Source: Bacteroidota bacterium (GTDB lineage: Bacteria > Bacteroidota > Ignavibacteria > UBA10030 > SZUA-254). From it: DNA of 64,000 nucleotides. The notes under the pieces are model-generated. The model was given only the letters and a program-made list of their open reading frames with translations. It ran no database searches and was not told where the DNA came from. The stretch's first letter is position 1; every line of letters starts with the position of its first letter. Below are positions 7,101 through 58,395 of the stretch, one piece after another. The translations under genes were made by a program, and so were the position numbers. The stretch covers positions 68,076-132,075 of the forward strand of contig JBIOHP010000003.1 in assembly GCA_044449065.1 (NCBI GenBank), given 5' to 3'.

Positions 7101-9752
7101 TTGAAAAAATTATTTCTGCGGATAAAAATACCCATAAATTCGTTCCCATTCCTCATTTTTTTGTTTGTTAACGGTTCGTTATTCGTTCCTTTGTATGGAC
7201 AAAATTTCCTAACCAATACCCGCAAGCTGCCTATTGTTACGGGGGAGGCAACTATCCACCATTACGAATATGTTCTTCCCGATGGCTGGATTTACCGGTA
7301 CGACATCGATAACGGACATACGCTCATCGATAGCTTCAGCATTCCAACTTCGCAGGGCACGCGGGGCGTTTCGGTCAATCCCCCTACCGGCATGATGTAT
7401 ATCAGCTATCGCGGCGATGGCGGCTTCCGCGGCAATGGCTCCATCCTGCAATTCAATCTCCTCACCAATACTGTCGGATGGAATAAAAGCTACTCGCATG
7501 GGATTGACAGCCATGAAGCATCCCCGGATGGCAAGATAATATATAGTCCCGATGGAGAACTCTCCGGCGATGGAAAATGGTATCTCATCAACGCGTCCGA
7601 TGGCAGTGAAACAGGTGTTACTATTAATACATCGACTCAGGGACCGCATAACACCATCGTCAGTTTGGATGGCACGCGGCTGTATATGGGCGACCGCGAT
7701 CCGTATAATGTCGGCAACGATTATTTCTACGTTGCAAACACAGCGAACGATTCGGTAATTCAAAAGGTCGGTCCGCTTATCAGGGGAATCAGACCATTCA
7801 CGATTAACGGCAAAGGCACAATCGCATATATCACCATCACAGGTTTTCTTGGATTTCAAGTCGGCAGCATCACTACCGGTAATGTTCTCTTTACCGTTGA
7901 TCTGACGAAAATGGGTTTTACCATCAGCCGCTGCTTTACCGATGGTTTCCCCGGCGGAAATTGCCAGACAAGTCACGGCATCTCGCTTTCACCGGATGAG
8001 AAAGAGATTTATGTCATCGATTCGCCGAACAGCTATGTGCATGTGTTTGATGTAAGCGGGGTTGAGAGCGGCACCGCGCCGGTAAAGATCGCCGATATTC
8101 ATTTGAACCACCCCTTCTTAGGTCAGGCGTCGAGCTGCGCGTATGATTGTTTACAGATCGGCTGGCTGCAGCACAGTCTTGACGGCAGGTATGTCTATGT
8201 CGGCGATTGCGGAGATATAATAGAGACGGCGACGCATTCGATCGTCGGCTTTATACCCGCGATGCGCAACACGAGAAAGATAATTGAAATAGATTTCCAA
8301 AACGGCAGCCCCATAGCCACAAGCACCCGGCAGGGAATAGGGTATGTGAGAGGCAATTCCGCGCCTTCGAGTCCGCTATTATCTAATCCTGTTAATGGCG
8401 CCACGGGTGAACCGACGAATATAACATTAAGCTGGAATAAAGCAAACGGCGATTCAATGTACCGTGTGCAGGCGGGAACTGATTCTAATTTTACTTCTAT
8501 CGTTATCGATGATTCGGCATTGGTTGACACATTCAAGCAAATCCCATCCTTATTGAATGCGACCTCATATTTTTGGCGGGTTCGAGCAAAAAATGTAAAC
8601 GGATTAAGCCCCTGGTCGCAGACCTGGAAATTCACAACTACTGCGTCGTCGCTTCCGGCGCCTAGGTTGGTATCGCCGGATAGTTCCTCAACGAACATGC
8701 CTACACTGGAAGTTCTCCACTGGAATAATGTTGCGGCGGCGGATTCATACAGAGTACAACTTGCTGCCGGTTTCGCCTTCGTTTCCCTCGAGAAAGATAC
8801 CGTCATCGCTATCGATTCAGTCATGATTGATAGCTTACTCCCTTCCAGTAAATACTATTGGCGTGTTGCTGCAAAGAACAGCCAGGGATTAGGTCCATGG
8901 TCTGAAACTTGGTGGTTTGCCACCCAGCGGCGTTGGGTTTCAGTGAACGTTTCACTCACGCATGGATGGAATATGGTTTCCGTTCCGGTAATTCCAAGAG
9001 ATTCATTGGCTGCTGCCATATTTCAAAATTCCTATTCAAGCGTTTATGGATACAGGGGCGGGTATGTCTCCGATGACACGCTTATCAATGGCGCCGGTTA
9101 TTGGGTAAAGTATCTGCGGGACACCAGTTTGTCCATAAGCGGATACGATATCGTTTCTGATACATTCAATGTTCTTGAGGGTTGGAATTTAATTGGATCT
9201 ATCAGTTCACCTTTCCCAACAACAAAAGTAACATCGTTGCCCGGAGGGTTGCAAGCATCCGGATTTTTTAGATATTCAACAGGATACCACCAGGTGGATA
9301 CGCTTCAACCGGGAGTTGGTTATTGGGTCAAGATAGATCAAGCAGGACAATTGATTTTCGCATCATCGAACGCAGCATCAGATTTATTTTCACTGAAAAT
9401 TATTCCAACTAACGAACTTCCCCCAAATCCACCCGACGCAATCGATCAGTCAAAAACCGGGATTCCCGAAAAGTTTTCGCTGGAACAGAATTATCCCAAT
9501 CCGTTCAATCCGACCACGGTATTTCAATATGCATTGCCTCTTGAAGCCATAGTCACATTGAAAGTATATAATGTCCTTGGGGAAGAGGTCGCAACATTGG
9601 TGAACGGAACACAACCGGCTGGTTTTAAATCAATAACATGGGATGGGAGTATGTTATCCAGCGGCGTGTATTTTTATAGTCTCGAGGCAGCCAGCGTTTC
9701 CGATCCGGCAAGATCATTCAGGCAAGTTCGGAAGATGCTGCTGTTGAAGTGA
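7101..9752 (+). CDS. Secreted multidomain T9SS cargo protein: N-terminal beta-propeller-like region, Fn3-like repeats, a duplicated 'GWN...GYWVK' module, and a type-A T9SS C-terminal sorting domain
   Basis: There is a signal peptide. Fn3-like repeats are recognisable (YRVQAGTDSNF...YFWRVRAKNVNGLSPWSQTWKFTT, twice). The C-terminal CTD motif is PNPFNPTT...VYNVLGEEVATLVNG...SGVYFYSLEA...KMLLLK. Confidence 0.8.
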   Translation: MKKLFLRIKIPINSFPFLIFLFVNGSLFVPLYGQNFLTNTRKLPIVTGEATIHHYEYVLPDGWIYRYDIDNGHTLIDSFSIPTSQGTRGVSVNPPTGMMYISYRGDGGFRGNGSILQFNLLTNTVGWNKSYSHGIDSHEASPDGKIIYSPDGELSGDGKWYLINASDGSETGVTINTSTQGPHNTIVSLDGTRLYMGDRDPYNVGNDYFYVANTANDSVIQKVGPLIRGIRPFTINGKGTIAYITITGFLGFQVGSITTGNVLFTVDLTKMGFTISRCFTDGFPGGNCQTSHGISLSPDEKEIYVIDSPNSYVHVFDVSGVESGTAPVKIADIHLNHPFLGQASSCAYDCLQIGWLQHSLDGRYVYVGDCGDIIETATHSIVGFIPAMRNTRKIIEIDFQNGSPIATSTRQGIGYVRGNSAPSSPLLSNPVNGATGEPTNITLSWNKANGDSMYRVQAGTDSNFTSIVIDDSALVDTFKQIPSLLNATSYFWRVRAKNVNGLSPWSQTWKFTTTASSLPAPRLVSPDSSSTNMPTLEVLHWNNVAAADSYRVQLAAGFAFVSLEKDTVIAIDSVMIDSLLPSSKYYWRVAAKNSQGLGPWSETWWFATQRRWVSVNVSLTHGWNMVSVPVIPRDSLAAAIFQNSYSSVYGYRGGYVSDDTLINGAGYWVKYLRDTSLSISGYDIVSDTFNVLEGWNLIGSISSPFPTTKVTSLPGGLQASGFFRYSTGYHQVDTLQPGVGYWVKIDQAGQLIFASSNAASDLFSLKIIPTNELPPNPPDAIDQSKTGIPEKFSLEQNYPNPFNPTTVFQYALPLEAIVTLKVYNVLGEEVATLVNGTQPAGFKSITWDGSMLSSGVYFYSLEAASVSDPARSFRQVRKMLLLK

Positions 9753-10431: not shown

Positions 10432-11025
10432 TCATTTCTTTTTATACGTCCAGTACTGCGCTTGCGCGCATTTTGGACATATACCGTGAGAGAATGTGAT
10501 ATCGTGATGCGTGGAAAAATACTTTTCTACGCTTTCCCAGTATTGATCGTCATTCCGTATGCTCTTGCAATTTGAGCACATCGGCAACAGGTATCTTAAT
10601 TGATGCAATTCAGTTATATCCTCCATGATCAAAATTGCGTAGGACTCATTATTGTAGGGAAGAGGCGAAGTCGTTACCAATATATCCATTTCTTTTCTTC
10701 CCACACCATCAAGCACCTCAAATCGAGTCCGTTCTCTGTAGACCGTTTTTTGGCGAATGGCAGAGTTGACAGAATTTCTGATGATACAGGAATTGCAGGA
10801 GGTTGAATGACCGCATCCTTCATTCGTTTCGGTTGAATGAAGACAGTGCAGCGCATCTCCCCCCCGTTGTAAATAAACTTTCGATAATTCGGGTCCAAAA
10901 GTGGAAGTTGCCGCGGGATTTATATGATGAATCCGAACGTCCGAATCAACGATGAATAACGGGGAGGGAAGAGAATCAAAAAGTTTGATTAAGAAATCTA
11001 AACTTGAAAATAACAAATTTTGCAT
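10432..11025 (-). CDS. PAS-domain sensor protein with a C-terminal Cys/His-rich putative metal-binding motif
   Basis: The N-terminal region is PAS-like (LFIVDSDVRIHHINPAATSTFG). The C-terminus carries CSNCKSIRNDDQYW...HHDITFSHGICPKCAQ. Confidence 0.55.
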   Translation of the reverse strand: MQNLLFSSLDFLIKLFDSLPSPLFIVDSDVRIHHINPAATSTFGPELSKVYLQRGGDALHCLHSTETNEGCGHSTSCNSCIIRNSVNSAIRQKTVYRERTRFEVLDGVGRKEMDILVTTSPLPYNNESYAILIMEDITELHQLRYLLPMCSNCKSIRNDDQYWESVEKYFSTHHDITFSHGICPKCAQAQYWTYKKK

Positions 11026-11096
11026 CAGGGTTTCAAAAATAAATGAACAAAGTGGATATAGGTAAAGAATATTTGGACATTGCCTCTCATTGCAGA

Positions 11097-12113
11097 TTAT
11101 TTTGTGTCATCGCTAACTATCTCATAGACACGGATCTCCGCATTTAGAACACCGTGTTTAGGAACTGCGAGGTAGTAACGGTTTAATTGTGGGATAAACA
11201 AGGCGGTTCTTGCGCCTTCGGAAGTCGGAACGAGCTCTGCTATTTGATAATGACGAGGGTCCTTTTGTTCTATTACCGCAATGTATCCCTCCCCGCTGGA
11301 AACGAAAATATAATGGTGAACCGGATCAATAAAGATGTCGTCCGCGTCGTGTGGAATTTTTAATAGCGCGATTTCCTTCAGGGAATCAGTATCTAAGATA
11401 AGGAGTCGCGGCGGGGTGCGGTAACCAATGTATAAACGACTACTATTTTCATCGAGCGCCAATGAATAATTATCTCGTAAGTCCTCATGAGTTCTTTTTA
11501 AAATAACTTTGCCTGCTAGGTCGATTATTGCGAGACGATTGATAGTCGGAATATTCACAAAGATTCTATGTCTGATGGATTCAATAGCAAATGCTTCTGG
11601 ATGACCTGTCAGTCCAATATCTGATTCATGAGTCCATGTTAACGGATCGATAATTGCTAGAGAACCGGTTCCAAATCCGAGATACACTTTCCCGGCGTCA
11701 GCGTCATAGCGAAGATTATCGGCGTCATTGTTAAAAGTGAAACGTTTCAACACCGTATATGTGTTGCCGTCAAGAATATTGCATGTTCCATCGCCGCCAT
11801 TCGCAACGACCAGCCGGTTTGAATCTGGTAAAAAGAGAATACCCTGCGGTTCAACGAATCCGCCGATAGATTGAAGCCGTTTTGCCTGCTGAAGATCGAC
11901 AACTTCTACCGAGTTATTTCCCAGCGCCGCGATGAACAATCTCCCTCCCATCGGATCATACGCTATGTGATCAATTCGCCCGGCAACGTCGGGAAGGGGA
12001 ATTGTTTGTACTAATTTTAATCGTGATGAGGATTGCAATTCGAATGGAAGGAATACGCTATAAAAGAGTAACGATGCGATAAACGTTGGTATTCTCATGG
12101 TATTGTGCGGCAC
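11097..12113 (-). CDS. Secreted beta-propeller repeat protein (YVTN/YncE-like)
   Basis: It has a signal peptide and repeated blade-like segments about 40 aa long (e.g. DHIAYDPMGGRLFIAALGNNSVEVVDL; LVVANGGDGTCNILD). Confidence 0.55.
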   Translation of the reverse strand: MPHNTMRIPTFIASLLFYSVFLPFELQSSSRLKLVQTIPLPDVAGRIDHIAYDPMGGRLFIAALGNNSVEVVDLQQAKRLQSIGGFVEPQGILFLPDSNRLVVANGGDGTCNILDGNTYTVLKRFTFNNDADNLRYDADAGKVYLGFGTGSLAIIDPLTWTHESDIGLTGHPEAFAIESIRHRIFVNIPTINRLAIIDLAGKVILKRTHEDLRDNYSLALDENSSRLYIGYRTPPRLLILDTDSLKEIALLKIPHDADDIFIDPVHHYIFVSSGEGYIAVIEQKDPRHYQIAELVPTSEGARTALFIPQLNRYYLAVPKHGVLNAEIRVYEIVSDDTK

Positions 12114-12374: not shown

Positions 12375-15122
12375 TTATTTATCCAACGCTTTTCTGACGC
12401 TTCTCAATATTGAAGCAACCTGGTACGGTTTTTGAAGAAAATCTTTTGCGCCGGCACGGGACATCTCCAGCCGCACTTCGGGTTCTATGTACCCGCTTGC
12501 GACAATTAATCTAATTGCGGGATTAATTTCTTTCAACCGGAGGAAGACGTCTCTCCCCGATAATCTGGGCAGACCGAGATCGCTGATGACAAGATCGATG
12601 GTTTTCCTCTGTTCCCGGTAAAGTCCTACCGCGGATTCACCATCCCTGGCGACCAAAATATGATACCCGCTCCCTTCGAGAACGGATTGCATGAATTCAA
12701 CGAGAAATTCTTCGTCCTCGACGATAAGAATTGTTTCTGCGCCGCCCGATATTTCTTCCTGGATTTTGTCCTCCGGTTGATTTGCAATTTCGGAAGCAGG
12801 CGGAACGGGGAAATAAAGATGGAACATCGATCCTTTACCATATTCGCTATCGACGGAGATGAATCCTTTATGGCTCATGACCACGCCGTAAACGACAGCC
12901 AGACCGAGACCCGTTCCTTTCCCTTTATCCTTCGTGGTGAAGAACGGTTCGAAAATCCGGTTCTTCATTTCTTCGCTCATGCCCATGCCCGTATCGGAGA
13001 GCGAAACCTCGACATAACGATCTACCGAAGCGTCATGAAAGCGCATCCTGAGTTTCGAGCCGTCCGCCATTTGAGTTTTAAATTTCATCTTACCCCCGCC
13101 TTGCATTGCATCCCGCGCGTTCACGCATAGGTTCAACAGCACCTGATGAAATTGTGTTTGATCTGCAATAATGAGGGGGAGATTCTCGGTAAGCTCCAGT
13201 TCAATCGTAATGAACCGTGGAAATGTTTCCCCGAGCATTTTAGCGATATCCCTGACGATGGTATTAACGTCGAGCGGAGTCTGCACAACTTCAGTCTGGC
13301 GGGCAAACGTTAAAATTTGTTTAACAAGGGACGCCCCGCGCTGCACGGTGCTATCGATGACTGCGGCGGCTTTGTTGATTACTTCAGGCGATTTCTCTCC
13401 GCCCTGGAGCAACCGGTTGTATCCCATAATGATCCCGAGAATATTATTGAAATCATGGGCAATTCCGCTGGCAAGTGTTCCGATGCTTTCTAATTTTTGC
13501 GCCCGGATTAATTCCTGCTCCAGCCGTTTACGCGGAGTATCATCGAAAATGTATCCTTTAAATTGTATCAATTCTCCTTTATCGTTGAAGACGCCGATTG
13601 CATTTTCGATAATATTAATCAATGTGCCGTCACGGCGGCGCATCGTTCCTTCGTAATATTCAAGTTTCTTCTTCTGCTGAAGAAGCCGCATAAAATCGCC
13701 GCGTTTCTGCGGATTGGTATACAGCGACCGTATATCGGCGTTAAGTGCTTCTTCAACGCTGGCATATCCGAAGATCCGCGCAAAGGCGGGATTGCAATCG
13801 AGCAGGCGTCCTTCGGTTGTTGCGATATAATCGCCCGTGAGATCTTCCTCAAAAAATCTCCGGTACCGTTCTTCGCTTTTTCGCAATTCGCCTTCGATGC
13901 GTTTACGTTCGGTCACATCGCGCAAAATTCCTTCATGATACAGAACATTGCCGTCTTCGTCGTGTACATATTGCCCGTGATCTTCCACCCATATTTCGGA
14001 TCCGTCTTTTTTCCGCATCCGGAATACTTCAATTTTTTCCAAGCCGGTATCGAGGAACAGACTTTCCCGATCTTCCTCCGCAAAATAAAGGTCGTTCTTG
14101 ATGTCGATAGTCAGCATTTCTTCTTTGCTGGCATAACCAAACATTTTCACCATCGCGGGGTTAATATCCACAAAATGACCTTCATGCGTGCTGCGGTATA
14201 TGCCGTCCATCATCCGGTCGAATAATGACCGATAGCGTTCTTCCGATTCCCGCAGCGCTTTCTCGATTCGCATACGCTCGGTTACATCGCGCAGAATGCC
14301 TTCGTGAAATATGACATTGCCGTGTTCATCATGCACGTATTGGCCATGATCTTCCACCCATATCTCGGCGCCGTCCTTCCGCTTCATGCGGAAGATCTCA
14401 ATTTTTTCCTGTCCGGTGTCTAAAAATAAACTTTCCCGGTCTTCCTCTGCAAAATAGCAATCCTTTTTAATGTCGATTGCAAGCATTTCTTCCTTGCATG
14501 CATACCCGAACATCTTCACCATGGCGTCGTTGACCTCGATAAATTTTCCGTTATGGGTGCTTCGATAGATACCATCCATCATACGGTCGAAAAGGGTGCG
14601 GTACCGTTCGTGCGACGCCCGTAATTCTTCTTCCATTTGTTTGCGGTCTGTAATATCCGTGATAAACCCGAGGATGGCTGGATGATTCCGGTAGGTGATT
14701 AATTTTGATGTTATGATCGAGGCGATTTTCGCGCCTGATTTTGTTACTAAGATATATTCGTACGGGATAACTTCTTCGCCATGAACATGTTTTGCATATG
14801 CGTCATCGACAAGTGAGCGGGATTCTATTGCGACCAACGATCGGAAATCGAATGAGGGGTGCATGAGTTCTTTCTTCGAATACCCCATCATCATTTCGCA
14901 TTTTGAATTCGCATACACAATTCTTCCGTTTTGATTGATGAAAATCATGTGGGGGGATTGCTCGGCGAGGATATTAAATTGATCTTCAGCTCCCTCTGGT
15001 ATTACTTCGGGAGATGGCCGTGAAACAGTCTCTGATAATTGTTTTTCGAGCTTCGCTATCCGAGTCCGAAGAGTCTTAAGTTCCTTCAACGGATCAGATT
15101 TTGGACTATGTTCATCTGCCAT
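12375..15122 (-). CDS. Multi-PAS hybrid sensor histidine kinase (PAS x4, HisKA, HATPase_c, C-terminal receiver)
   Basis: HisKA H-box [13 protein letters not shown]; HATPase G-boxes [11 protein letters not shown]; receiver ILIVEDEEF...[10 protein letters not shown]...K. There is an N-terminal coiled coil. Two PAS units are near-identical tandem copies. Confidence 0.85.
13861..14609. repeat. Tandem duplication of about 375 bp (13861-14240 and 14229-14609) encoding two near-identical PAS domains inside the histidine kinase gene
   Basis: The protein repeats are [23 protein letters not shown]...[13 protein letters not shown] and [23 protein letters not shown]...[13 protein letters not shown]. The nucleotide copies are visibly similar, estimated at about 75-80% identity. 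Confidence 0.7.
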
Positions 15123-15582: not shown

Positions 15583-18570
15583 TTATAAATCTTTTGCGGG
15601 TTTAAGTATAACTCCTTTCTGTTCGTGCCCATTCATTTTCACTATAACGGGGCTGGAAAAATGCAGATGTTTAGTGTATGTCTTTTCTTGCGCGGGTTGT
15701 TGTTCTAAAAGCCATCGCCAATCGAGTTTACCGCGGTCGTTCATTTCATTGACCGTAAAATATCCGATCATGAAAGCTGTCAGATTTTGGAAAAAGTGAG
15801 AACCCTGGGAAGGAGTTACAACGACGTCTTTAAATCCGGTTTCTACGATAACTTTCGCACCCGATATTTGTTCCCACCGGACCGGGATCCCCAGCCACGG
15901 ATCAAACGTGCCCCATCTGCCGAGACCGATGAGAAGGTACGGCTTGTTCTCCGCGGTTAACACGCCATTGAATTGTTCCACTTCCATTGCCACCTGTTCG
16001 CTCATCGCCCGATCGAATTTATTAAAATCAACCATGACAATATCGTAGATATTGTCGATAACTCCGTTGCCCAGCACCTGAGGACTTTCGCAAAGGATGG
16101 TTTCCGGTTCCATTTTATCAAGCCGTAATTCTTCCACTTCTCGGTTGATTACTAACGGGCGCATCTGGAGAAGCCCGAATTCTTTTCGCTCGCCCGGATT
16201 TACAGACATCCTGACGGCAAATTCAATTTCAACAGGCGTTCCCATGCCCGAGCTGCCGATTTCTAAGATCAAATCTAAGATTTCAGGAAGCGGCAGAAGT
16301 TTATTTTTTAATATCGGCGCGAACGTCACCAATCGAGTCCCTATTCGGGATAATCCGTCATGAACGGTGTCGTTTTCCGGAGAGTACGTCGATCCGGCAT
16401 ATCGCAATGTTCCATCCTCCTCGGCGTCATTTAGAACAAAGCGTTTCGTAAGATCGTTGACGCCGGTTTCTGTGGAATTGGAATCGAGCTCTAAATCGAT
16501 TGCGAAGAATTCGCGCTGGTTATTCGCGAGTGTTTCTTCAATGGTTGTAAATTGGTATAGATGTCCGGGATATTTCGGGCAAAATTTTACACACGATCCG
16601 CCATCGACAATCATCTGCCCCAGTCCAAGCGCAACGGATGTTATTCCATCCGAGGAAAGTTGGGGAGGCATCGGATAAAAATTGAACGATTTGGCGACGC
16701 CTGAAAAATCCGGATAGAACCTTTTTCGATGTTTAATCCCGACCACTTTTTGAATAATCACCGCCATTTTTTCTTCTTCGAGTCGATAGAGCGTATGGCG
16801 CGTATACTCTTTTGCCGCGCGGGAATACGTGGAAGCGTAGACTCGTCTGATTGCGTTTAAAAGCTGTGTGAGCCGGAATTCAGGGTCGGGATGATTATTC
16901 GGAATCATGAGCGTGGAGTAAATTCCCGCGAACGGTTGGTATTGCGAATCTTCCTGCAAGCTTGACGATCTGACGGCAAGCGGCTCCGCGACAACTTCCA
17001 GGAATGCCTTCAGATCGCGCAGGACTCTGCGGGGAAATTTTTTTGCGCTTAAAAAACGTGCGGTTGTTTCTTCATCCGAAACTTCACTCAGAATCAGATC
17101 GTGCAGATAATTTTTTTCAACAAAATAGTCAAATACATCAGTGGCGATGACGACGCCTGGTGGGATAAAGATACGAACGTCTTCAAACCGTTCCCGAAGG
17201 TCGTAGGTATTCAGGAGCATATTCAAAAAATTCAACCCGCGCGCTTTGCCCCCCAATGATCCGCCTCCGATACGCGCGAAACTGCTTGATGGATCGAACG
17301 TGTCTTTCGCAAAATCCGTGATCCTGCCGCGCTGTTGTTCTTCCCGGTAACTATGCAGGGAATCGATCAAATCCTGACGCAGCAATTCCAACGATGCGTA
17401 ATCGGAGACGCGCCGGGGACGCAGATGGTACGCAACGCCGAATTCCGTCCGCGCTTTCAGCCAATTCGAGAAATGGTTTCGTTCGGCATGAAATTTAATG
17501 CTTGCCTCGGGAACAAGATGAAGCTGTTCTTCCAGCGATTTGAGGTCTGAAGCTTGCCCAACCTCCTGCCCATCGGGCGTCCGGAATATAAAATCCCCGA
17601 AACTGAAATAATATTTCATAAAGGAACGGACTTCCTGTAGTAACGTGGGCGATCCCTTCAACGCAAACGATGCCCCCACTTCAAATGCTTTTGCGCGGTT
17701 TTCCGGATGGTTTGATTGGAGGAGGATGGGTATATCTTCCTGTGCGGCTTTTACCCGCAGGGCAAACTCGATACCCGCTTCCGGATCGGGTTTGCCGTCT
17801 TTTTGAAAATCCACATCCGAAATGACGCCGGAAATATATTTCTGATATTTCGTAAAGTATAACCACGCTTCCTCGTAGGTCGTAGCAAGAAGAATTTTTG
17901 GTCTCGCACGCATTCGCAGGAACCGGTGAGAAAGGTTCACCCCTTCCGTTATTAATCGTTTGGAATGTTTGAGCACCTCGGTATAGATGCTCGGTAAAAA
18001 TGACGAGTAGAATCTGACGTTATCTTCGATCAACAGAATCGCCTGAACTCCGGCAACCTCTGTATCATGTTGAACATTTTTAAGATCTTCAATATGAGAT
18101 AATATTGCGATGATCAGGTGGTAATCTCCCTGCCATAGAAATATCCGGTCGAATAAGGACGTTTCATGGTGGGTAAGAAGGTCGGCTAATTCTTTTTGAT
18201 CGAGCGCAAGAAGCACAACAGATATATTGAGTTTCAATTCTCGAATTTGTTTGGCGAGCTGAAGCGCATGCATATCCTCTATATGCATCGTTGTAATGAT
18301 CAGGTCGAATTGTTTTCCTTCTTTCGCCAGCGCAATCGCCTCGGCGCCTGTCGAAACACGATGGAGCTCGGGTGCGTGAGAAATATGAAATCCCTCGTAT
18401 TCGCTGCGGATTAATTCGTATAAACGGGCGTCTTCCTCGATCATATACGAATCGTAAAGACTCGAAACAAGAAGCACGTCGCGGATTCGGAATCGCATGA
18501 GATTTTGAAAATCCATGTATTTACGCTGGTAGATGTGATCTACCCAGTGATCATCCCTGGATATCATCAT
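15583..18570 (-). CDS. Fusion protein: receiver-like domains (one degenerate, one canonical) joined to a PEP-synthase/PPDK N-terminal ATP-grasp domain, with no phosphohistidine swivel domain
   Basis: The receiver region is QAILLIEDNVRFYSSFLP...ISDVDFQKDG...ILLQS. The PPDK_N hallmarks are RIGGGSLGGKARGLNFL, and ...VEIEFAV...GLLQMRPLV, which resembles the EFA..QaRP motif of PEP synthase. No GGRTSH-type swivel motif was found. Confidence 0.65.
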   Translation of the reverse strand: MMISRDDHWVDHIYQRKYMDFQNLMRFRIRDVLLVSSLYDSYMIEEDARLYELIRSEYEGFHISHAPELHRVSTGAEAIALAKEGKQFDLIITTMHIEDMHALQLAKQIRELKLNISVVLLALDQKELADLLTHHETSLFDRIFLWQGDYHLIIAILSHIEDLKNVQHDTEVAGVQAILLIEDNVRFYSSFLPSIYTEVLKHSKRLITEGVNLSHRFLRMRARPKILLATTYEEAWLYFTKYQKYISGVISDVDFQKDGKPDPEAGIEFALRVKAAQEDIPILLQSNHPENRAKAFEVGASFALKGSPTLLQEVRSFMKYYFSFGDFIFRTPDGQEVGQASDLKSLEEQLHLVPEASIKFHAERNHFSNWLKARTEFGVAYHLRPRRVSDYASLELLRQDLIDSLHSYREEQQRGRITDFAKDTFDPSSSFARIGGGSLGGKARGLNFLNMLLNTYDLRERFEDVRIFIPPGVVIATDVFDYFVEKNYLHDLILSEVSDEETTARFLSAKKFPRRVLRDLKAFLEVVAEPLAVRSSSLQEDSQYQPFAGIYSTLMIPNNHPDPEFRLTQLLNAIRRVYASTYSRAAKEYTRHTLYRLEEEKMAVIIQKVVGIKHRKRFYPDFSGVAKSFNFYPMPPQLSSDGITSVALGLGQMIVDGGSCVKFCPKYPGHLYQFTTIEETLANNQREFFAIDLELDSNSTETGVNDLTKRFVLNDAEEDGTLRYAGSTYSPENDTVHDGLSRIGTRLVTFAPILKNKLLPLPEILDLILEIGSSGMGTPVEIEFAVRMSVNPGERKEFGLLQMRPLVINREVEELRLDKMEPETILCESPQVLGNGVIDNIYDIVMVDFNKFDRAMSEQVAMEVEQFNGVLTAENKPYLLIGLGRWGTFDPWLGIPVRWEQISGAKVIVETGFKDVVVTPSQGSHFFQNLTAFMIGYFTVNEMNDRGKLDWRWLLEQQPAQEKTYTKHLHFSSPVIVKMNGHEQKGVILKPAKDL

Positions 18571-18695: not shown

Positions 18696-18731
18696 ATAAA
18701 AAAACGGAGTGGATAATTCCACTCCGTTTTT
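18696..18731 (-). terminator. Rho-independent terminator for gdhA (aaaaaaACGGAGTGG-ataattC-CACTCCGTtttt), possibly bidirectional
   Basis: A perfect 9-bp GC-containing stem is flanked by an A-run and a T-run, directly 3' of gdhA. Confidence 0.7.
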
Positions 18732-18753: not shown

Positions 18754-20115
18754 TTATACTACGCCCTGATCCATCATCGCATCGGCAACTTTTAAGAAGC
18801 CGGCGATATTGGCGCCATTCACATAATTACCAGGCGTGCCGAAACGTTCTGCCGTTTCGTAGCTGGCTTTATGAATGCTCTTCATAATGTTATGGAGACG
18901 GTTATCGACTTCTTCGCGCGTCCATGAGTAGCGCTGGCTGTTCTGCGACATCTCTAAACCAGAGGTCGCAACACCGCCGGCATTCGCCGCTTTGCCCGGA
19001 CCGTAAAGAATTTTTGCGTCGATGAATTGTTTTACGCCGTCGAGCGTGGTAGGCATGTTTGCGCCTTCAGATACCACGTACACGCCATTCTTTAAGAGAT
19101 TGGCTGCGTCTTTGCCGTTGACTTCATTCTGGGTAGCGCTCGGGAACGCGCACTGCGCTTTGTGATTCCAAAGCGGGTTGTACCCTAATTTTGAATCGGT
19201 CGGAGTATACACCGCGCTCTTGAATTTATCGGCATATTCTTTAATTCTGCCGCGGCGAACATTCTTTAAATCCATCACGAATGCCAATTTCTTCGCGTCT
19301 ATTCCGGCTTCATCATAAATGTAACCCGCTGAATCGGACACGGTAACGGCTTTGCCGCCAAGCTGGTTGATTTTTTCAATAGTGTATTGTGCGACATTGC
19401 CGCTTCCGGAAACGAGGCAAATTTTTCCATCAAGCGTTTGTTTCTTCGTTGATAACATTTCTGCCGCAAAGTACACTGCGCCATATCCGGTTGCCTCGGG
19501 ACGAATGAGCGAACCGCCCCAATTTAATCCCTTGCCGGTAAGAACGCCGGTAAATTCGTTGCGGAGTTTTTTGTACCTGCCGAATAAAAATCCTATTTCA
19601 CGGCCTCCAACGCCGATATCGCCCGCCGGGACGTCGGTATCCGGACCGATGTGGCGGAATAACTCATCCATGAACGCCTGGCAAAAACGCATGACTTCCA
19701 TATCGCTCTTGCCTTTTGGATCGAAATCGGATCCGCCCTTACCGCCGCCCATCGGCAGCGTGGTTAAACTGTTTTTGAATACCTGTTCGAATGCAAGGAA
19801 TTTTAAAATTCCAAGATTTACCGATGGATGAAGTCTCAACCCGCCCTTGTACGGACCGATTGCGCTGTTCATTTCGATTCGGAAGCCGCGATTGACATGT
19901 ATTTCACCGCGATCATCTACCCATGGTACGCGAAACATCAGCACGCGTTCCGGTTCCACTATGCGTTCGAGCATTTTTGCCGAACGATATTCCGGATGAC
20001 GTTCAAGCACGATGGAAAGCGATTCTACCACTTCCTGAACTGCCTGATGAAATTCCGGTTCAGCCGGATTTTTTGCTTTGATTGCAGCCATGAGATCGTT
20101 TACATAACCTGACAT
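18754..20115 (-). CDS. gdhA: NADP-specific glutamate dehydrogenase
   Basis: 453 aa with the GDH signature region LPMGGGKGGSDFDPKGKSD and the Rossmann motif GSGNVAQY. Confidence 0.9.
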   Translation of the reverse strand: MSGYVNDLMAAIKAKNPAEPEFHQAVQEVVESLSIVLERHPEYRSAKMLERIVEPERVLMFRVPWVDDRGEIHVNRGFRIEMNSAIGPYKGGLRLHPSVNLGILKFLAFEQVFKNSLTTLPMGGGKGGSDFDPKGKSDMEVMRFCQAFMDELFRHIGPDTDVPAGDIGVGGREIGFLFGRYKKLRNEFTGVLTGKGLNWGGSLIRPEATGYGAVYFAAEMLSTKKQTLDGKICLVSGSGNVAQYTIEKINQLGGKAVTVSDSAGYIYDEAGIDAKKLAFVMDLKNVRRGRIKEYADKFKSAVYTPTDSKLGYNPLWNHKAQCAFPSATQNEVNGKDAANLLKNGVYVVSEGANMPTTLDGVKQFIDAKILYGPGKAANAGGVATSGLEMSQNSQRYSWTREEVDNRLHNIMKSIHKASYETAERFGTPGNYVNGANIAGFLKVADAMMDQGVV

Positions 20116-20638: not shown

Positions 20639-20918
20639 TGAACTCGTTTAAATGGTGCATTCTTAGATTTGTTCAGACGCAGATTACCGAATGATTTCTT
20701 CAGCGCCAGTGCTTGGCGATGCGGAAAACCGGAATCGTATCCCGAAAGATTTCATGAGATAGATTTCACATCGATTTTTTCTCCCTTCGCCCATGATGCC
20801 GTTAATGTTTAGCGAAGATGTTTTCTATGCGGATGATCGCTTTTTATCTCTCGATGTGCTATAATGTTAATTTTTTCATACATTCAATGATTGTTTCACA
20901 AGCCAATAGGATCAATTG

Positions 20919-21815
20919 ATGCGCCAGATGAAAAATTTCACCATCGGTTTAATTCAAATGTCGATGACCCCCAGCCCGAAAGACAACCTGCAGCGGGCGG
21001 TCGATTTTATCGGGCAGGCGGCAAAGAAAAAAGCTCAAATAATTTGTCTCCCCGAATTGTTCAGCTTCCAATACTTTTGCCAGCGCGAAGATATCGCGTT
21101 GTTCGATCTCGCCGAGCCCGTGCCGGGACCGACGACGGAGGCAATTCAGGCGGCCGCGAAGAAACACAATGTTGTTGTTGTTGTACCGCTTTTTGAAAAA
21201 CGCGCGATCGGGTTGTATCATAACACCGCCGCTGTGATCGACGCCGACGGCGTCTTACTCGGTCTCTACCGCAAAATGCATATCCCGGACGATCCTTCTT
21301 TTTTTGAAAAATTTTACTTCACGCCGGGCGACCGCGGGTTTCAGGCATTTCAAACAAAATTCGGAAAAGTCGGAACGCTCATCTGCTGGGATCAGTGGTA
21401 TCCCGAAGGAGCGCGGCTCACCTCGCTCCTCGGCGCCGGGGTTCTTTTTTATCCTACCGCAATCGGGTGGCTGCCTCATGAGAAAAAGCAATACGGAGCT
21501 ACACAGCGGGACGCGTGGGAGACGGTTCAACGGGGACATGCTATCGCTAACGGCGTTTTTGTTGCGGCAGTCAACCGGGTGGGCATTGAAAAGCCCTCGC
21601 CGGATTCCACGGGGCTGGAATTCTGGGGAAGTTCGTTCATCGCCGATCCGCAGGGAGTGATCCTTGCCAAGGGCTCGACCGATAAGGAAGAAATTATTAC
21701 GGCGGAAATCGATCTTGCTCACATGGAAGAGGTCCGGCGCAATTGGCCCTTCCTCCGCGACCGCAGGATCGACGCGTACCAGGGCATTACCGAACGGTTT
21801 TTGGATAAGAAATAA
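20919..21815 (+). CDS. aguB: N-carbamoylputrescine amidase (carbon-nitrogen hydrolase family)
   Basis: Nitrilase-superfamily catalytic triad context (E in LPELF, K in YRKMH, C in LICWDQW). The length is about 298 aa. It is adjacent to agmatine deiminase. The ORF as given begins at TTG 20916, but the ATG at 20919 is the more likely start. Confidence 0.85.
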   Translation: MRQMKNFTIGLIQMSMTPSPKDNLQRAVDFIGQAAKKKAQIICLPELFSFQYFCQREDIALFDLAEPVPGPTTEAIQAAAKKHNVVVVVPLFEKRAIGLYHNTAAVIDADGVLLGLYRKMHIPDDPSFFEKFYFTPGDRGFQAFQTKFGKVGTLICWDQWYPEGARLTSLLGAGVLFYPTAIGWLPHEKKQYGATQRDAWETVQRGHAIANGVFVAAVNRVGIEKPSPDSTGLEFWGSSFIADPQGVILAKGSTDKEEIITAEIDLAHMEEVRRNWPFLRDRRIDAYQGITERFLDKK

Positions 21816-21835
21816 TTATCGCATCCCCTTTTAGC

Positions 21836-22918
21836 ATGATTTCATCTCCAAAAACAATGTCCGGGCGGGTATCGCCTGCCAACATTATGCCGGCTGAATG
21901 GGAACCGCATGAAGCTACCTGGATCGGCTGGCCCCAAAACCTCACAGATTGGCCCGGGAAGTTTACGCCAATACCCTGGGTGTACGCCGAAATAGTACGA
22001 AAACTTACCGAAGGGGAAAAGGTGAGAATACTCGTCGATTCGAAACGCGTGGAACAAAAAGCCAAAGATGTATTGACAAAAGTCGGCGTTAATAATAAAA
22101 TGGTTGAGTTTTTTCAAATTCCAACCAACCGCGGGTGGACGAGGGATATGGGACCGATGTTTATCCGGCAAGGGAAGAAAAAAAATCATCGCACAATTCT
22201 TCGTTTTGGATTCAGCGGCTGGGCGAAATATCCGAACTGGCAAAAGGATGGCACAGTGCCCGAACGGGTTTCAAAAATATTAAAGATTCCTCTATTCGAT
22301 GCGATGGCGGCAGACCGTCGGGTTGTGCTGGAAGGAGGGAGCATCGATGTGAACGGACGCGGCACGCTGATCACGACGGAAGAATGCCTGCTCCATCCAA
22401 AAATCCAGGTGCGTAATCCCGGTTTTTCCCGGAAAGATTATGAAAGTGTGTTCAGCAAATACTTAGGCGCTTCAAATGTGATCTGGCTCGGCAAGGGCAT
22501 AGCGGGGGACGATACCCACGGGCATGTGGACGATCTCTGCCGGTTCGTCAACCTGCGCACGGTTGTGCTCTGCGCTGAGAATAACAAAAACGATGATAAT
22601 TATAAGCCGCTCTGTGAAAACCTGGAACGGCTGCAAACCGCGAGATTAGAAGATGGCTCCAGACCGGAGGTTATTCCCTTGCCTATGCCCGCGCCGCTCT
22701 ATTTTAACGAACAGCGGTTGCCTGCAAGCTACGCTAATTTTTATATCTCGAACGCGGCGGCGCTTGTCCCCACATTTAACGATCCCAACGACCGGCACGC
22801 GCTCGGCATCCTGGGCGAATTAATTACCGACCGCCCGGTTATCGGGATTCACGCCGTCGATCTTGTTTGGGGACTTGGTACGCTGCATTGCCTGACACAA
22901 CAGCAGCCGGGTAGGTGA
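21836..22918 (+). CDS. aguA: Agmatine deiminase (PAD_porph family)
   Basis: N-terminal MPAEWEPHEATWIGWPQN and C-terminal GGIHCxTQQ-type motif (GTLHCLTQQQP). It is adjacent to aguB. Confidence 0.85.
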   Translation: MISSPKTMSGRVSPANIMPAEWEPHEATWIGWPQNLTDWPGKFTPIPWVYAEIVRKLTEGEKVRILVDSKRVEQKAKDVLTKVGVNNKMVEFFQIPTNRGWTRDMGPMFIRQGKKKNHRTILRFGFSGWAKYPNWQKDGTVPERVSKILKIPLFDAMAADRRVVLEGGSIDVNGRGTLITTEECLLHPKIQVRNPGFSRKDYESVFSKYLGASNVIWLGKGIAGDDTHGHVDDLCRFVNLRTVVLCAENNKNDDNYKPLCENLERLQTARLEDGSRPEVIPLPMPAPLYFNEQRLPASYANFYISNAAALVPTFNDPNDRHALGILGELITDRPVIGIHAVDLVWGLGTLHCLTQQQPGR

Positions 22919-31926: not shown

Positions 31927-34900
31927 ATGAAACAATTCAATAAACCTGGACGAATGGTCAAATCACAATACGCCTTGTGGTTTATGGCATTTCTCGGTTT
32001 GTTCATATTGTTTTATTCATCATCCAAATCCCAAAGTCTTGATTTCACAGAGAAATCGCGCTGGGTGCATTTTACTACATACTCAGGCCTGCCCGCGGGT
32101 GAAATTAACGGTATATTTGAATCCTCCGATAGCACGTTGTGGGTATCAACATTGCAGGGGCTTGCATGCTTTGATGGTTATAGATGGAGAAGCGGCGATA
32201 GCTCCGCCGGCTGGCCCACAAATAAAAGCGTAACGATTCGGGGCGAGTATCACGATAGTATATTAATTTTATTTTCCGGAACAGAATTTCTGGGAAATAA
32301 AAATGGATTTCGTAAAATTATAGAGCGTGTACACGATAGTGTTACCATCATTGGAAAATCTTTCCATCCGTCAGATGAATACACGGCTCTTTTCACACTT
32401 TATAGCGATTACTTCCGCAACAAGCCTGATCCGGACTTCGTTAAAACCGTAAAATCGTTTTACCCCGCGAAGAACGGAAGTCTATGGATAACCCGGAACG
32501 ACGGCTTATACCGGTGGGATGGCAATCAGTGGCGATTCAGATTTCAATTATCGAACCCGCGCGCACTGGGGAGTGTAATCTTGCTGTCGGAAAATAACAG
32601 CGGTTCGGGCATCTGCCTCGAACGAATGCCGACTGGTCAAACGGGGATGTGGGAATGGATACATAATGGCCCCTTCATCCAGTGTGAGATGGAGCATCAA
32701 TATCTTTATATGACCAGTGCCGATATTGACGACTCTGATAATGTCGTTTCCGTGAGTCAGGGAGGTGAAATCTATGTGAGGACAGACAACGGATGGAAAA
32801 TTTTGCCCTTCTTTCCCGATAATCCAAAAAATATTACCAAAGTGTTATTCAGAAAAAATGGCGATCTGTGCGTCGGCAGCGATGAAGGAATATCAATCTG
32901 GCGGCGGTCATTCAATACCTGGACTACCCTGCCTCAATCCTCAACGGAATTGAAAAACTGCATCGATGAAATTCTTCTGACGAGGAAAGGCGACCTGTGG
33001 ATTGGATCCGCCAATGGATTCGAAATCAGATATGCGGATGGGAGGGTTGAGGATAAGACAGTCCTCGATAATAAGAGAATTTTGAATATTACCGGTCTAC
33101 AGGAAGACGACGATGGAAATATCTGGATATCGAGCGGCTCCTCTTTCGATGGCGCGTATAAGTGGGATGGAAAATCGTGGACGTATTACCCGATACAACA
33201 ATCTTCCCAGGGAATTTATGTCCACAAAATCCGTAAAGACAAACGTGGACGGCTTTGGTTTCTTGGCCTCGGACAAAATCTTGTTCCACCAATCGATGAT
33301 GAACCGGGTGCTTACGTTCTTGATCACGGCATATTTACAAAATGGGGTTTGAAGGAAGGTTTGCACAGCGCCCGTGTGTACGCGTTTGATGAAGGAGATA
33401 AAGGGACTTTTTATTTTGGCACTCACAAAGGGATATGCAGATTCAGAGACGGAGCGTGGACATATTGGACAACAGGGAATGGGTTGCGTGAGGATCATGT
33501 GTTTTGCCTGGCGGCAGATCATGAGGGTGGAATCTGGTTTGGACATATGAATACTGTCGGATTGGGTTATATCGATGCGCATGATAGCGTTCATTATTTC
33601 ACCACCGACGATGGCATTCCCGATAACCGTGTCTATGATATCAAAGTAGATGCTGGCGGAGTTGTGTGGGTCGCTACTCATGGCGGACTCTGTTGTTATG
33701 ATCATGGGCAATGGTCAATTTTTGATGAGAAGAGCGGATTAATTTCCAATTCCCTCTGGCCCGTGTTACCGCTGGACCACGATGTTTATGTGGGAACGAC
33801 GGGAAAGGGCGTGGCAATTCTCAACCGGGATGCTGGAAGATCATTGTATCCAAAAGTAGAAAATGAGAAGCCGATCGTTGAAAATCAGAATGTCTATATC
33901 AGATGGAAATCTTTCGCGTACTATGGGGAAGTAATGCCTGAAAATTCGCTCACACGATACCGCATCAATAACGACAATTGGTCGCCATGGAACACAACCC
34001 ATGAGATATCGTATCGGGAACTGGCAGCAGGTCAATATACAATTGGTATTCAGGGTAAGGGTTTATACGGTCAGTTTAATCCTGTTCCGGAAAATGCAAC
34101 ATTTATAATCTTACCGCCGCTGTATCTCCGCCCGATCATTTATATTCCAGCAAGCGGCGCAATTCTGGCTATGGCAATGCTGTTAACATTGCTGCAATTA
34201 CGACGGATAAAACATCGCAAAGAACTTACGAAGAGCGAAGAACGGTACCGCCTGATCACGGAATTGATGTCCGATTATGCCTATTTGTATCACATTGAGG
34301 ATGAGGGACGGCTGAACGTACTTTGGATAACCGAATCGTTTACGCGGCTCACCGGTTATTCAATAGAAGAGTTCAAGCAATCAGAATTCTTCGAAAGGTA
34401 TAATCACGCCGAGGATCTGCCGTTTATCCTCAAAATGCATGAAGCCGTTATGAATGGAACGCCGGAGAGTTATGAAGGTAGAGTAAAAACTAAAAATGGC
34501 GATACCCTCTGGATGCATAACCATCTGGCGCCAATCTGGAATAGCGATCATACACGCGTGACGCATATGTATGGAATTGCCAGAGATATCACGCGGCGAA
34601 AACATGATGAAGAGCAAATGCGGATGCTCGCCACGGAACTTTCCACTACCGAAGAGCGGGAACGGCGAAGAATGGCTGAGTTTCTTCATGATACGATAGG
34701 GCAGACACTGGCGTTTTCAAAAATAAAGCTCCGCACAATTGAACGATCCTCAACTGATGAAAAAGTGCATACCCAGATCGAAGAAGTTCGAAAGCTTATC
34801 GAAGAATCGATAAAAAATACGCGTTCGCTTACCTTTGAACTGAGTCCTCCTACGCTGTATGAATTAGGCCTGGTGGAATCTGTCCGATCGTTAGCCGAAC

Positions 34901-35295
34901 AGATGTTCGCACAGCATAATATCCGGTTACAATTTGAAAATGAAGAATTGTCAATTCACACGGGGAATGAATTGAGTATTGCGCTTTACTATGCGGTGCG
35001 TGAAGTTCTCATTAATATCGTCAAACATTCCGGCGCCACCGAAGTATCAATTGTTATTCCTTCTTCTAACGACTTCATCCGGGTAATAATCCGTGATAAC
35101 GGCAGGGGAATTGATCCACTCCCTTCCGGCTCTCCCTCAAAAACTGAAACGTCTTTTGGATTGTTCAATATCCGCGAACGTCTCAAACATCTCGGCGGAA
35201 GCCTTGAAATTAATTCAGCGCCAAACGCAGGAACCACAATTACGTTAACAATTCCCCTTACGTCGGGAGATATCAGAGAAGAGGTAAAATCATGA
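31927..35295 (+). CDS. Sensor histidine kinase with a periplasmic two-component-regulator beta-propeller (Reg_prop) and Y_Y_Y domain, a TM segment, a PAS domain, and a HisKA_3/HATPase_c kinase core
   Basis: Repeated Reg_prop units (GLACFDGYRW, GLYRWDGNQW, GAYKWDGKSWTYY, GICRFRDGAWTYW, GLCCYDHGQWSIF). A TM helix (IIYIPASGAILAMAMLL). A NarL-family H-box (MAEFLHDTIGQTLAF). An ATP-binding region (VIIRDNGRGI...FGLFNIRERLKHLGG). Confidence 0.85.
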   Translation: MKQFNKPGRMVKSQYALWFMAFLGLFILFYSSSKSQSLDFTEKSRWVHFTTYSGLPAGEINGIFESSDSTLWVSTLQGLACFDGYRWRSGDSSAGWPTNKSVTIRGEYHDSILILFSGTEFLGNKNGFRKIIERVHDSVTIIGKSFHPSDEYTALFTLYSDYFRNKPDPDFVKTVKSFYPAKNGSLWITRNDGLYRWDGNQWRFRFQLSNPRALGSVILLSENNSGSGICLERMPTGQTGMWEWIHNGPFIQCEMEHQYLYMTSADIDDSDNVVSVSQGGEIYVRTDNGWKILPFFPDNPKNITKVLFRKNGDLCVGSDEGISIWRRSFNTWTTLPQSSTELKNCIDEILLTRKGDLWIGSANGFEIRYADGRVEDKTVLDNKRILNITGLQEDDDGNIWISSGSSFDGAYKWDGKSWTYYPIQQSSQGIYVHKIRKDKRGRLWFLGLGQNLVPPIDDEPGAYVLDHGIFTKWGLKEGLHSARVYAFDEGDKGTFYFGTHKGICRFRDGAWTYWTTGNGLREDHVFCLAADHEGGIWFGHMNTVGLGYIDAHDSVHYFTTDDGIPDNRVYDIKVDAGGVVWVATHGGLCCYDHGQWSIFDEKSGLISNSLWPVLPLDHDVYVGTTGKGVAILNRDAGRSLYPKVENEKPIVENQNVYIRWKSFAYYGEVMPENSLTRYRINNDNWSPWNTTHEISYRELAAGQYTIGIQGKGLYGQFNPVPENATFIILPPLYLRPIIYIPASGAILAMAMLLTLLQLRRIKHRKELTKSEERYRLITELMSDYAYLYHIEDEGRLNVLWITESFTRLTGYSIEEFKQSEFFERYNHAEDLPFILKMHEAVMNGTPESYEGRVKTKNGDTLWMHNHLAPIWNSDHTRVTHMYGIARDITRRKHDEEQMRMLATELSTTEERERRRMAEFLHDTIGQTLAFSKIKLRTIERSSTDEKVHTQIEEVRKLIEESIKNTRSLTFELSPPTLYELGLVESVRSLAEQMFAQHNIRLQFENEELSIHTGNELSIALYYAVREVLINIVKHSGATEVSIVIPSSNDFIRVIIRDNGRGIDPLPSGSPSKTETSFGLFNIRERLKHLGGSLEINSAPNAGTTITLTIPLTSGDIREEVKS

Positions 35296-57954: not shown

Positions 57955-58395
57955 ATGATGAAAGATGTTATGTGGACTCTCGACCAAAGTTTGGGATATC
58001 TCATGGTTCGCACCGCCCGTGGAATGAAACGTGCGCTCGAATCAAAACTCGAAGAACACAACCTCACCGCTACTCAATATATACTCCTTGCGCGGTTATG
58101 GGAACAGGACGGTATCTCGCTCTCCGAGTTAGGGGAACGCCTTTTCCTCGATAATCCGACGCTCACCGGAATCGTCGATAGGATGGAGCGCGACGGCCTG
58201 GTTGAACGAAAAAGAAATGACGGCGACCGGAGAGTTGTGAGGGTTTACCTTACTCCCAAGGGAGAATCGCTCAAAGAAACCATCGGAACACTGGCGGCTG
58301 AAGTTGATGATGAAGCGAACGATCATTTTACCGAAACTCAGCGTCAGGATTTGTTGAACAGCTTGAATATCATCTGGAATAAATTCAATGACTGA
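57955..58395 (+). CDS. MarR-family transcriptional regulator
   Basis: 146 aa with a winged HTH (LTATQYILLARLWEQDGISLSELGERLFLDNPTLTGIVDRMERDGLVERKRNDGDRRVV). Confidence 0.8.
   Translation: MMKDVMWTLDQSLGYLMVRTARGMKRALESKLEEHNLTATQYILLARLWEQDGISLSELGERLFLDNPTLTGIVDRMERDGLVERKRNDGDRRVVRVYLTPKGESLKETIGTLAAEVDDEANDHFTETQRQDLLNSLNIIWNKFND

Follow-up and report, generated by a model that had tools for sequence, protein, structure and literature searches.

A minus-strand open reading frame (ORF) at 15583..18570 of a 64,000-nucleotide stretch of a Bacteroidota genome assembly (GCA_044449065.1, contig JBIOHP010000003.1, positions 68,076 to 132,075 of the forward strand; this whole stretch is referred to here as the window) starts with ATG and encodes a protein of 995 amino acids (aa) that is composed of a pseudo-receiver (pseudo-REC), a receiver (REC), a DUF5752-like linker, a PPDK_N ATP-grasp domain and a C-terminal domain with an invariant histidine. 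The core of this protein, comprising the ATP-grasp and C-terminal domains, is genomically locked to genes for glutamate dehydrogenase (GDH), in two different architectures and in several phyla. Based on the logic that a very large family has members adjoining GDH genes across many phyla, we consider that the core probably represents an unrecognized control system for GDH, and we have good confidence in a functional coupling between the two.

The gene immediately upstream of the ORF, gdhA (18754..20115, minus strand), encodes a GDH of 453 aa (Pfam ELFV_dehydrog, E 4e-85). Gene neighborhoods were compared across 79 related genome loci from the family alignment, in which ORFs were called and clustered; these loci carry the labels Ignavibacteria, Melioribacter, Calditrichia, KSB1, Zixibacteria, Acidobacteriota, Bdellovibrionota and others, with the proviso that labels of metagenome-assembled genomes (MAGs) may err. 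GDH was the sole widely conserved neighbor, being present in 66 of the 79 loci and mostly co-directional, with its gene immediately upstream in 52 loci and immediately downstream in 33. A preliminary description of the 995-aa protein, made from the sequence of the window, had read its context in terms of an adjacent kinase and missed this conserved upstream neighbor. In annotated contigs, too, the upstream gene was a Pfam-verified GDH, and the surroundings were otherwise unrelated and had no adjacent kinase.

Many of the Ignavibacteria-type loci contain tandem arrays of the form GDH (446 aa)-X-GDH (453 aa)-X-GDH (415 aa), where X is a member of the family under study. In 52 of 55 cases, a protein and its closest relative at a different locus had the same class of upstream GDH; paralogs within a locus were 56-60% identical to each other, and proteins following the 446-aa class averaged 65.5% identity across loci. 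The paralogs sort, that is, by the class of the GDH upstream of them, and the GDH-X pairs are therefore old, co-inherited units.

The linkage to GDH is independent of the receivers. A clade of genuine receiver-less forms of ~585 aa, which start just before the GGK motif of the ATP-grasp domain and are ~40% identical to the core encoded in the window, was sampled through three look-ups and 79 metagenome loci (L081-L165, e.g. L082 4583-11805). A GDH of 428 aa, representing a third class that is closest to the 415-aa class, was encoded immediately upstream of this core (core 1) in 41 of the 49 loci with room for it. Directly downstream of core 1, in 39 of 40 loci, was the gene for a ~1,060-aa protein consisting of an unassigned N-terminal region, a second PPDK_N core (core 2) that retains GRWG and "SFGTHFF", and a C-terminal Pol-beta-type nucleotidyltransferase (NTase, in 38 of 40); the genes for core 1 and core 2 often have overlapping stop and start codons, and one relative (P0218) is a single protein of 1,654 aa in which core, core and NTase are fused. 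A metallophosphoesterase gene, usually convergent, came after the core 2-NTase gene in 23 of 33 loci. The NTase and metallophosphoesterase companions look like a writer/eraser cycle. An anti-phage defense system was also considered and rejected, since PADLOC matched neither the 995-aa protein nor core 1, and its matches for the companions were generic ones to NTases and phosphoesterases.

The N-terminal regions of the family are variable. Some long REC-type relatives (P0197, P0260, P0207 and P0268) have at their N-terminus one to four copies of an uncharacterized ~130-aa repeat with the motif WQYPE...ARI.YD...F.ET.W...G.IEV.Y...DEGPFL.EE..L, which had no Pfam match and which also opens core 2 (L082 7755-8760). 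This repeat is possibly a sensor domain. The core therefore acts as an output module that can be placed behind different sensory inputs, be they REC domains or this repeat.

Directly after gdhA and before the start of the target gene is an intrinsic-terminator-like hairpin (18698..18731, minus strand) whose perfect 14-bp stem is flanked by an A-run and a T-run, and for which RNA folding gave -20.7 kcal/mol (z = -7.1). It has the appearance of an intrinsic terminator acting in both directions. A simple consensus promoter/terminator scan did not pick it up. Similar hairpins were found in 27 of 56 GDH-to-target gaps elsewhere. These hairpins weaken the case for an obligate gdhA-target operon; because a terminator lies between the two genes in the window and similar structures are present in about half of the other loci, the pair is probably conserved in position without being an obligate operon. 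The layout of gdhA, terminator and target is consistent with a structural gene followed by its regulator, without proving it.

The REC-ATP-grasp fusion is not rare, belonging to a very large family that is distributed over several phyla. A database protein from a Bacteroidota MAG (P0001) is 100% identical to the 995-aa protein and, P0001 excepted, the best 120 database relatives are 62-81% identical to it, all being full-length at 968-1012 aa. These relatives have been named "PEP/pyruvate-binding domain-containing protein", "CheY-like chemotaxis protein" and, wrongly, "histidine kinase". A representative search with residues 330-995 returned 3,632 clusters at 50% identity for E values up to 1e-3 and 931 for E values up to 1e-30. 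In terms of its domains, the REC-ATP-grasp protein is a response regulator with an enzymatic output, and it is an orphan in most genomes.

A Pfam scan of the 995-aa protein detected Response_reg at residues 66-125 and PPDK_N at residues 438-820. The full-length AlphaFold (AF2) model was of moderate quality (predicted local distance difference test score, pLDDT, of 66) and showed (beta-alpha)5 domains at residues 32-173 and 177-322, a helical linker, the ATP-grasp domain and a separate C-terminal alpha/beta domain. Foldseek searches with this model retrieved the rifampin phosphotransferase (RPH) of Listeria, tandem-receiver regulators (PleD and 3LUF) and CheY-like receivers. The domain order given in the preliminary description (degenerate receiver, canonical receiver, PPDK_N ATP-grasp) was borne out by Pfam, hhalign, AF2 and Foldseek, and the motifs it quoted were located at residues 440-449 (GGKARGLNFL) and 783-807 (EFAV...LLQMRPLV). 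Its "roughly 600-aa domain" does have a PPDK_N part, but it is not a single domain, as it resolves into the DUF5752-like linker (residues 323-437, 17260..17604), PPDK_N (residues 438-820, 16111..17259) and a domain of 175 aa (residues 821-995, 15586..16110), all on the minus strand.

The first receiver (REC1, residues ~27-173, 18052..18492, minus strand) was delimited by Pfam, hhalign and AF2 secondary structure, and its residues at the key positions mark it as an aspartate-less pseudo-receiver. Its Response_reg match is confined to residues 66-125 and scored 31.3 bits against a cut-off of 30.2; in the hhalign alignment to E. coli CheY, T94 (codon 18289-18291) was aligned with the phospho-acceptor D57, and the position of the acidic pair is occupied by S36/S37. 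The second receiver (REC2, residues ~174-322, 17605..18051, minus strand) was recognized by hhalign and Foldseek as a canonical receiver with an insertion of ~30-45 residues, its Pfam match on its own being weak (E 0.15). Here, hhalign to E. coli CheY placed D252 (codon 17815-17817) on D57 and S286 on T87, and E182/D183 and K305 were assigned by motif position as the acidic pair and the conserved lysine; all of these residues are invariant in alignment A1. REC2 is as such the phosphorylatable receiver, with D252 in the acceptor position. The tandem receivers of PleD and 3LUF were the top Foldseek matches for the N-terminal 320 residues. The (beta-alpha)5 CheY-like fold was thus found twice, and the phospho-acceptor aspartate set was found in REC2 but not in REC1. 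Given T94 opposite D57 and S36/S37 at the acidic pair in REC1, and D252 in REC2, the original call of a degenerate followed by a canonical receiver was right, and the reservation attached to it, that the N-terminal domains might not be receivers on a profile search, did not hold against Pfam, hhalign, AF2 and Foldseek.

The linker that follows has weak similarity to DUF5752 (PF19027; E 9.4e-05, 22.3 bits, which is below the cut-off of 23), a family that was also matched in the relatives P0197, P0229 and P0143. It contains the conserved motif FGDF.FR...HAERNHFSNWLKARTEF and is absent from the receiver-less clade.

Assignment of the ATP-grasp nucleotide-binding domain was supported by Pfam (PF01326, E 4.1e-37, 128.6 bits against a cut-off of 27), by hhalign to E. 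coli PpsA (probability 96.8% over residues 453-651) and by PDB and Foldseek searches. An alignment of 61 relatives with 31-55% identity showed G440, G441, K442, R534, S535, S536, E540, D541, Q607, E783 and Q802 to be invariant; the domain also holds E781 and R804. The invariant residues fall in the GGK, VRSS..ED and E..Q segments, which align to PPDK_N and to E. coli PpsA. In pyruvate phosphate dikinase (PPDK) and phosphoenolpyruvate (PEP) synthase, these segments bind nucleotide and Mg2+, and since the invariant residues lie within them the domain looks catalytically competent. The check for the catalytic residues of PEP synthase that the preliminary description had proposed therefore gave intact motifs, and it is likely that the protein is a catalytically active ATP-using enzyme.

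The best PDB sequence match was the Listeria RPH (5HV1/5HV6, E 1.5e-11 to 4e-12), which was also the best fold match in Foldseek (5HV1, E 2.5e-08; isolated ATP-binding domain 5HV6, TM 0.53). NCBIfam models for PEP synthase, PigC/RedH and RPH matched residues ~461-671 alone, and these matches were short and far below the cut-offs: no more than 54 bits against 598-1063 for the PEP-synthase equivalogs (e.g. 53.7 versus 883), 20.9 bits against 999 for RIF_Ptrans_rph and 50.7 bits against 1300 for PigC.

The C-terminal 175 aa, defined from alignments A2 and A3 and the AF2 model, are a distinct domain that has no detectable relative among modeled families or solved folds and that always accompanies the ATP-grasp domain, bringing with it conserved His, Arg and Glu residues. 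Its invariant residues are N868, G884, R885, G894, P896, E910, S921, G923 and H925, and its invariant motifs are GRWG (G884-R885-W-G), which forms a loop next to H925, and SQGSH(925)FF (H925 codon 15796-15798). An AlphaFold model of residues 818-995 was of high confidence (pLDDT 93.4, predicted template modeling score, pTM, 0.90), and in the AF2 models a flexible loop of lower confidence precedes a helix whose N-terminal position is occupied by H925. A Pfam search with the isolated segment matched no family, and the same search with the corresponding segment of 32 diverse homologs found no consistent family and no PF00391. The C-terminal profile aligned to E. coli PpsA with an hhalign probability of 0.15%, the whole-protein profile aligning to PpsA through the ATP-grasp region only. 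No match was obtained in a PDB-sequence profile search with the domain, and a Foldseek search of the whole PDB with the pLDDT-93.4 model gave a best E value of 0.054 (TM 0.28); none of the 50 matches listed was to a chain of a dikinase, enzyme I or RPH. By Pfam, neither the PF00391 swivel domain nor the PF02896 PEP/pyruvate TIM barrel was detected at any threshold tried. The preliminary description had noted that no His-swivel domain was evident, while conceding that the presence of a swivel or PEP-utilizing domain would overturn its reading, and on this point Pfam, hhalign, the PDB profile search and Foldseek were all negative.

In view of the histidine in "PSQGSHFF", the C-terminal domain was also considered as a diverged swivel phospho-His domain (compare "GGxTSHAA"), and this was rejected for want of support from Pfam, hhalign, PDB or Foldseek. 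We have kept the domain solely as a possible functional analog of the swivel domain. A role for His925 as the phospho-carrier is suggested tentatively, at somewhat below an even chance.

The ATP-grasp domain is homologous to that of RPH (PDB 5HV1/5FBS), PEP synthase (PEPS), PPDK and PigC/RedH, which have the GGK, VRSS..ED and E..Q motifs in common with the 995-aa protein. Besides the ATP-grasp domain, those enzymes possess a PF00391 swivel and a further domain for the substrate, whereas the 995-aa protein has neither and is instead receiver-controlled, GDH-linked and terminated by the distinct 175-aa domain. Of the RPH/PigC-type arrangement (ATP-grasp, central substrate-binding and swivel His domains), the ATP-grasp domain alone aligned; of the PEPS/PPDK arrangement, PF01326 was found, and the PF00391 swivel, the PF02896 barrel and a family-level score were not. 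Because two defining domains were looked for and are absent, the protein is not a PEPS, PPDK or RPH-type enzyme. Its original likening to rifampicin phosphotransferase as a stand-alone PPDK_N enzyme was inexact, in that RPH has a C-terminal swivel His domain and the target ends in a different domain with its own invariant His.

The N-terminal half has a clearer precedent. PleD-type regulators likewise have a tandem of a true receiver and a pseudo-receiver ahead of an enzyme domain, the differences being that in the 995-aa protein the pseudo-receiver comes first and the output is the ATP-grasp core rather than GGDEF. By analogy, we infer that activation might occur through PleD-like dimerization.

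Of two published censuses of two-component proteins, one describes REC with pyruvate phosphate dikinase as a "Bacteroides-like combination" and gives three examples in Heimdallarchaeota (Galperin et al. 2018, PMC5847659), and the other reports an enrichment of aspartate-less receivers among those attached to PPDK effector domains (Maule et al. 2015, PMC4395418). The census class "REC-PPDK" is the same REC-PPDK_N fusion as that studied here, and REC1 matches the enrichment of aspartate-less receivers (PMC4395418). In their accessible text, both papers (PMC5847659, PMC4395418) catalogue the architecture without a function, the C-terminal domain or an association with GDH. In a literature search on PPDK_N with response regulators, on DUF5752, and on GDH with PEP synthase or NTase, whose coverage excluded most subscription-journal papers, neither a functional study nor any account of the C-terminal domain or of an association with GDH came to light. 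The domain architecture has been listed before and is that of a large family; what appears to be undescribed is the GDH-locked core with its new His-bearing domain, together with the four-gene cassette. For Bacteroides thetaiotaomicron, Baggio and Morrison reportedly wrote in 1996 of "trans-acting gene(s) downstream of gdhA"; this lead was dropped as unsupported, BT1971 being a catalase and the neighboring locus tags yielding nothing useful.

The explanation that we favor, to which we give a little less than an even chance, is that the 995-aa protein is a phosphorelay-gated, ATP-dependent modifier that controls GDH; both the target and the chemistry are what we infer. A histidine kinase, for which the neighboring PAS hybrid kinase is a local candidate, would phosphorylate D252, and this phosphorylation would rearrange the stem of the tandem receivers, as in PleD, and so switch on the ATP-grasp core. 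The core would then load a phosphoryl or pyrophosphoryl group from ATP, possibly onto His925, and the loaded group would be passed to a target, most likely the GDH encoded by the adjacent gene or a direct effector of GDH. A nitrogen or carbon signal would in this way determine GDH activity at the post-translational level. The receiver-less relatives would perform the same job through the GDH, core 1, the sensor-core 2-NTase fusion and the metallophosphoesterase. That the GDH protein itself is the covalent target appears doubtful. The most explicit version of the scheme, in which the core loads a phosphoryl group onto the new phospho-His domain and transfers it to GDH, with the REC form gated by phosphorelay and the receiver-less form operating as a writer/eraser cassette akin to the GlnE/glutamine synthetase cycle, is unlikely. 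The earlier suggestion of a signal-gated ATP-dependent modifying enzyme fits the evidence, with the exception that control by the adjacent kinase is not conserved.

Precedent for covalent control of GDH comes from mammalian SelO, which AMPylates and inactivates Glud1 (PMC12375108). The pairs GlnE/glutamine synthetase, AceK/isocitrate dehydrogenase and SelO/mammalian GDH offer a functional analogy only, namely that of a dedicated ATP-using modifier of a central enzyme, to which the receiver-less cassette adds a Pol-beta-type NTase and a phosphoesterase. The core has no homology to GlnE, AceK or SelO, and its modification of GDH is put forward as a conjecture.

Carbon and nitrogen metabolism meet at GDH, and little is understood of how bacteria control this enzyme post-translationally. 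The family occurs in hundreds of species and is among the larger classes of enzyme-output response regulators without a known function, and its near-obligatory pairing with GDH, one paralog per GDH class, points to a specific target. If the proposal is true, PEP-synthase-type phosphotransfer would extend to a new class of target (either a protein or an effector of GDH) and would include a carrier domain of a new kind, and it would become apparent how GDH is switched between assimilatory and catabolic roles in peptide-fermenting bacteria of the FCB group and their relatives. Should the substrate instead be a metabolite, the GDH linkage would still narrow the search for it considerably.

Several observations weigh against control of GDH by such a modifier. 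To our knowledge, the characterized PPDK_N-type enzymes (PEPS, PPDK, RPH, GWD and PigC) act on small molecules or glucans and not on proteins. The association with GDH is one of gene context, in loci that are phylogenetically non-independent; 13 of the 79 loci have no GDH nearby, no fusion to GDH was found among 387 family proteins, and a strong terminator separates gdhA from the target in the window, with similar hairpins at about half of the other loci. What points to His925 as a phospho-carrier is its invariance and its position, and the domain in which it lies is unlike the known swivel. Lastly, the neighborhoods contain other metabolic genes: those that recurred when the loci were inspected by eye were for M24 peptidase, aminotransferase, S9 peptidase and a NarL-type two-component pair (7-9 loci), and those identified by Pfam in the annotated contigs were for M20 peptidase, OPT transporter and alanine dehydrogenase. 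With peptidase-, aminotransferase- and alanine-dehydrogenase-type genes as neighbors, the association with GDH could be explained by a shared pathway.

The main alternative holds that the protein is a small-molecule phosphotransferase in the pathway of GDH, which would phosphorylate or activate a metabolite from the catabolism of glutamate, 2-oxoglutarate or amino acids, with a substrate-binding or catalytic C-terminal domain and with receivers that tune flux. The substrate range of every characterized ATP-grasp relative accords with it, as do the best profile matches, which are to the PEPS, PPDK, RPH and PigC/RedH families, the richness of the neighborhoods in genes for amino-acid and peptide catabolism, and the agmatine deiminase and carbon-nitrogen (CN) hydrolase genes that adjoin gdhA in the window. 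We nevertheless judge it unlikely. At least three GDH classes each have their own paralog in a genome, which is a better fit to a dedicated protein partner than to a shared metabolite; the variable sensory N-termini and the NTase and phosphoesterase companions look regulatory; and Pfam searches of the protein and its homologs found no substrate-binding domain of a known type.

A second alternative turns on the gene located 460 bp downstream of the target (12375..15122, minus strand), which Pfam confirmed to encode, as stated in the preliminary description, a multi-PAS hybrid histidine kinase with a C-terminal REC (four PAS domains, HisKA, HATPase_c and REC). This kinase could be the cognate phosphodonor in a two-gene signaling unit that gates an enzyme unrelated to gdhA. 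The genes are on the same strand, the kinase is complete, and a different PAS-HisKA_3 kinase is interleaved, with a NarL-type regulator, in the GDH/target array of 7-9 other loci. Homologs of the hybrid kinase were identified, however, in just 3 of the 79 loci, with no fixed position, and the annotated contexts elsewhere have no kinase nearby, which rules it out as a conserved partner and removes the basis for the partnership implied originally. In addition, phosphotransfer from a hybrid kinase to a receiver on another protein normally requires an Hpt protein as intermediary, and the 460-bp gap suggests separate promoters. A two-gene unit of this kind is therefore improbable. The kinase is a candidate phosphodonor by proximity only; its presence next to the target is probably incidental, and gdhA is the important neighbor.

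Less probable again is a non-catalytic ATP/ADP sensor or scaffold that binds GDH and alters its activity or assembly without covalent chemistry. The tight pairing with specific GDH paralogs and the lack of a recognizable phospho-carrier domain would suit such a protein, but K442, R534, E783 and Q802 do not vary even among very divergent members, which would be unusual if the core served for binding only; the His, Arg and Glu residues of the C-terminal domain are likewise invariant, and NTase and phosphoesterase genes co-occur with the core. An ordinary PEP synthase or PPDK with added receivers, to which the PPDK_N domain and the "PEP/pyruvate-binding" names given to relatives by some sources would point, is already refuted by the domain tests, given the lack of a swivel His domain and of a TIM barrel (Pfam, hhalign, PDB profile and Foldseek) and the scores far below the NCBIfam equivalog cut-offs.

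Other genes of the window include further signaling genes. Downstream of the hybrid kinase (10432-12113, minus strand) are genes for a WD40/beta-propeller-like protein of 338 aa, with a weak Pfam match, and a PAS-domain protein of 197 aa. A second sensor kinase, of 1,122 aa, with Reg_prop beta-propeller repeats, PAS, HisKA_3 and HATPase_c, is encoded at 31927-35945 (plus strand) with an overlapping ORF of 217 aa after it that is probably its NarL-type regulator; kinases of this class are the ones interleaved in the GDH/target arrays of 7-9 other genomes. Divergent from gdhA (20916-22918, plus strand) are the genes for a carbon-nitrogen hydrolase (20916..21815) and a Porphyromonas-type agmatine/peptidyl-arginine deiminase (21836..22918), a pair that looks like agmatine-to-putrescine nitrogen salvage adjoining GDH.

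Two large proteins with type IX secretion C-terminal sorting domains (Por_Secre_tail) are encoded at 7101-9752 and 36523-43146 (both plus strand), one of them of 2,207 aa with PKD, laminin-G and SdrD-B repeats; these are consistent with an FCB-group organism. The segment 24001-28000 has a G+C content of ~0.36, compared with ~0.46 in its flanks, and may be foreign or island DNA. Toward the end of the window (58388-63784, plus strand) is a cluster for fatty-acid or branched-chain catabolism, comprising genes for a thiolase, a fused 3-hydroxyacyl-CoA dehydrogenase/enoyl-CoA hydratase and an HMGL-like lyase.

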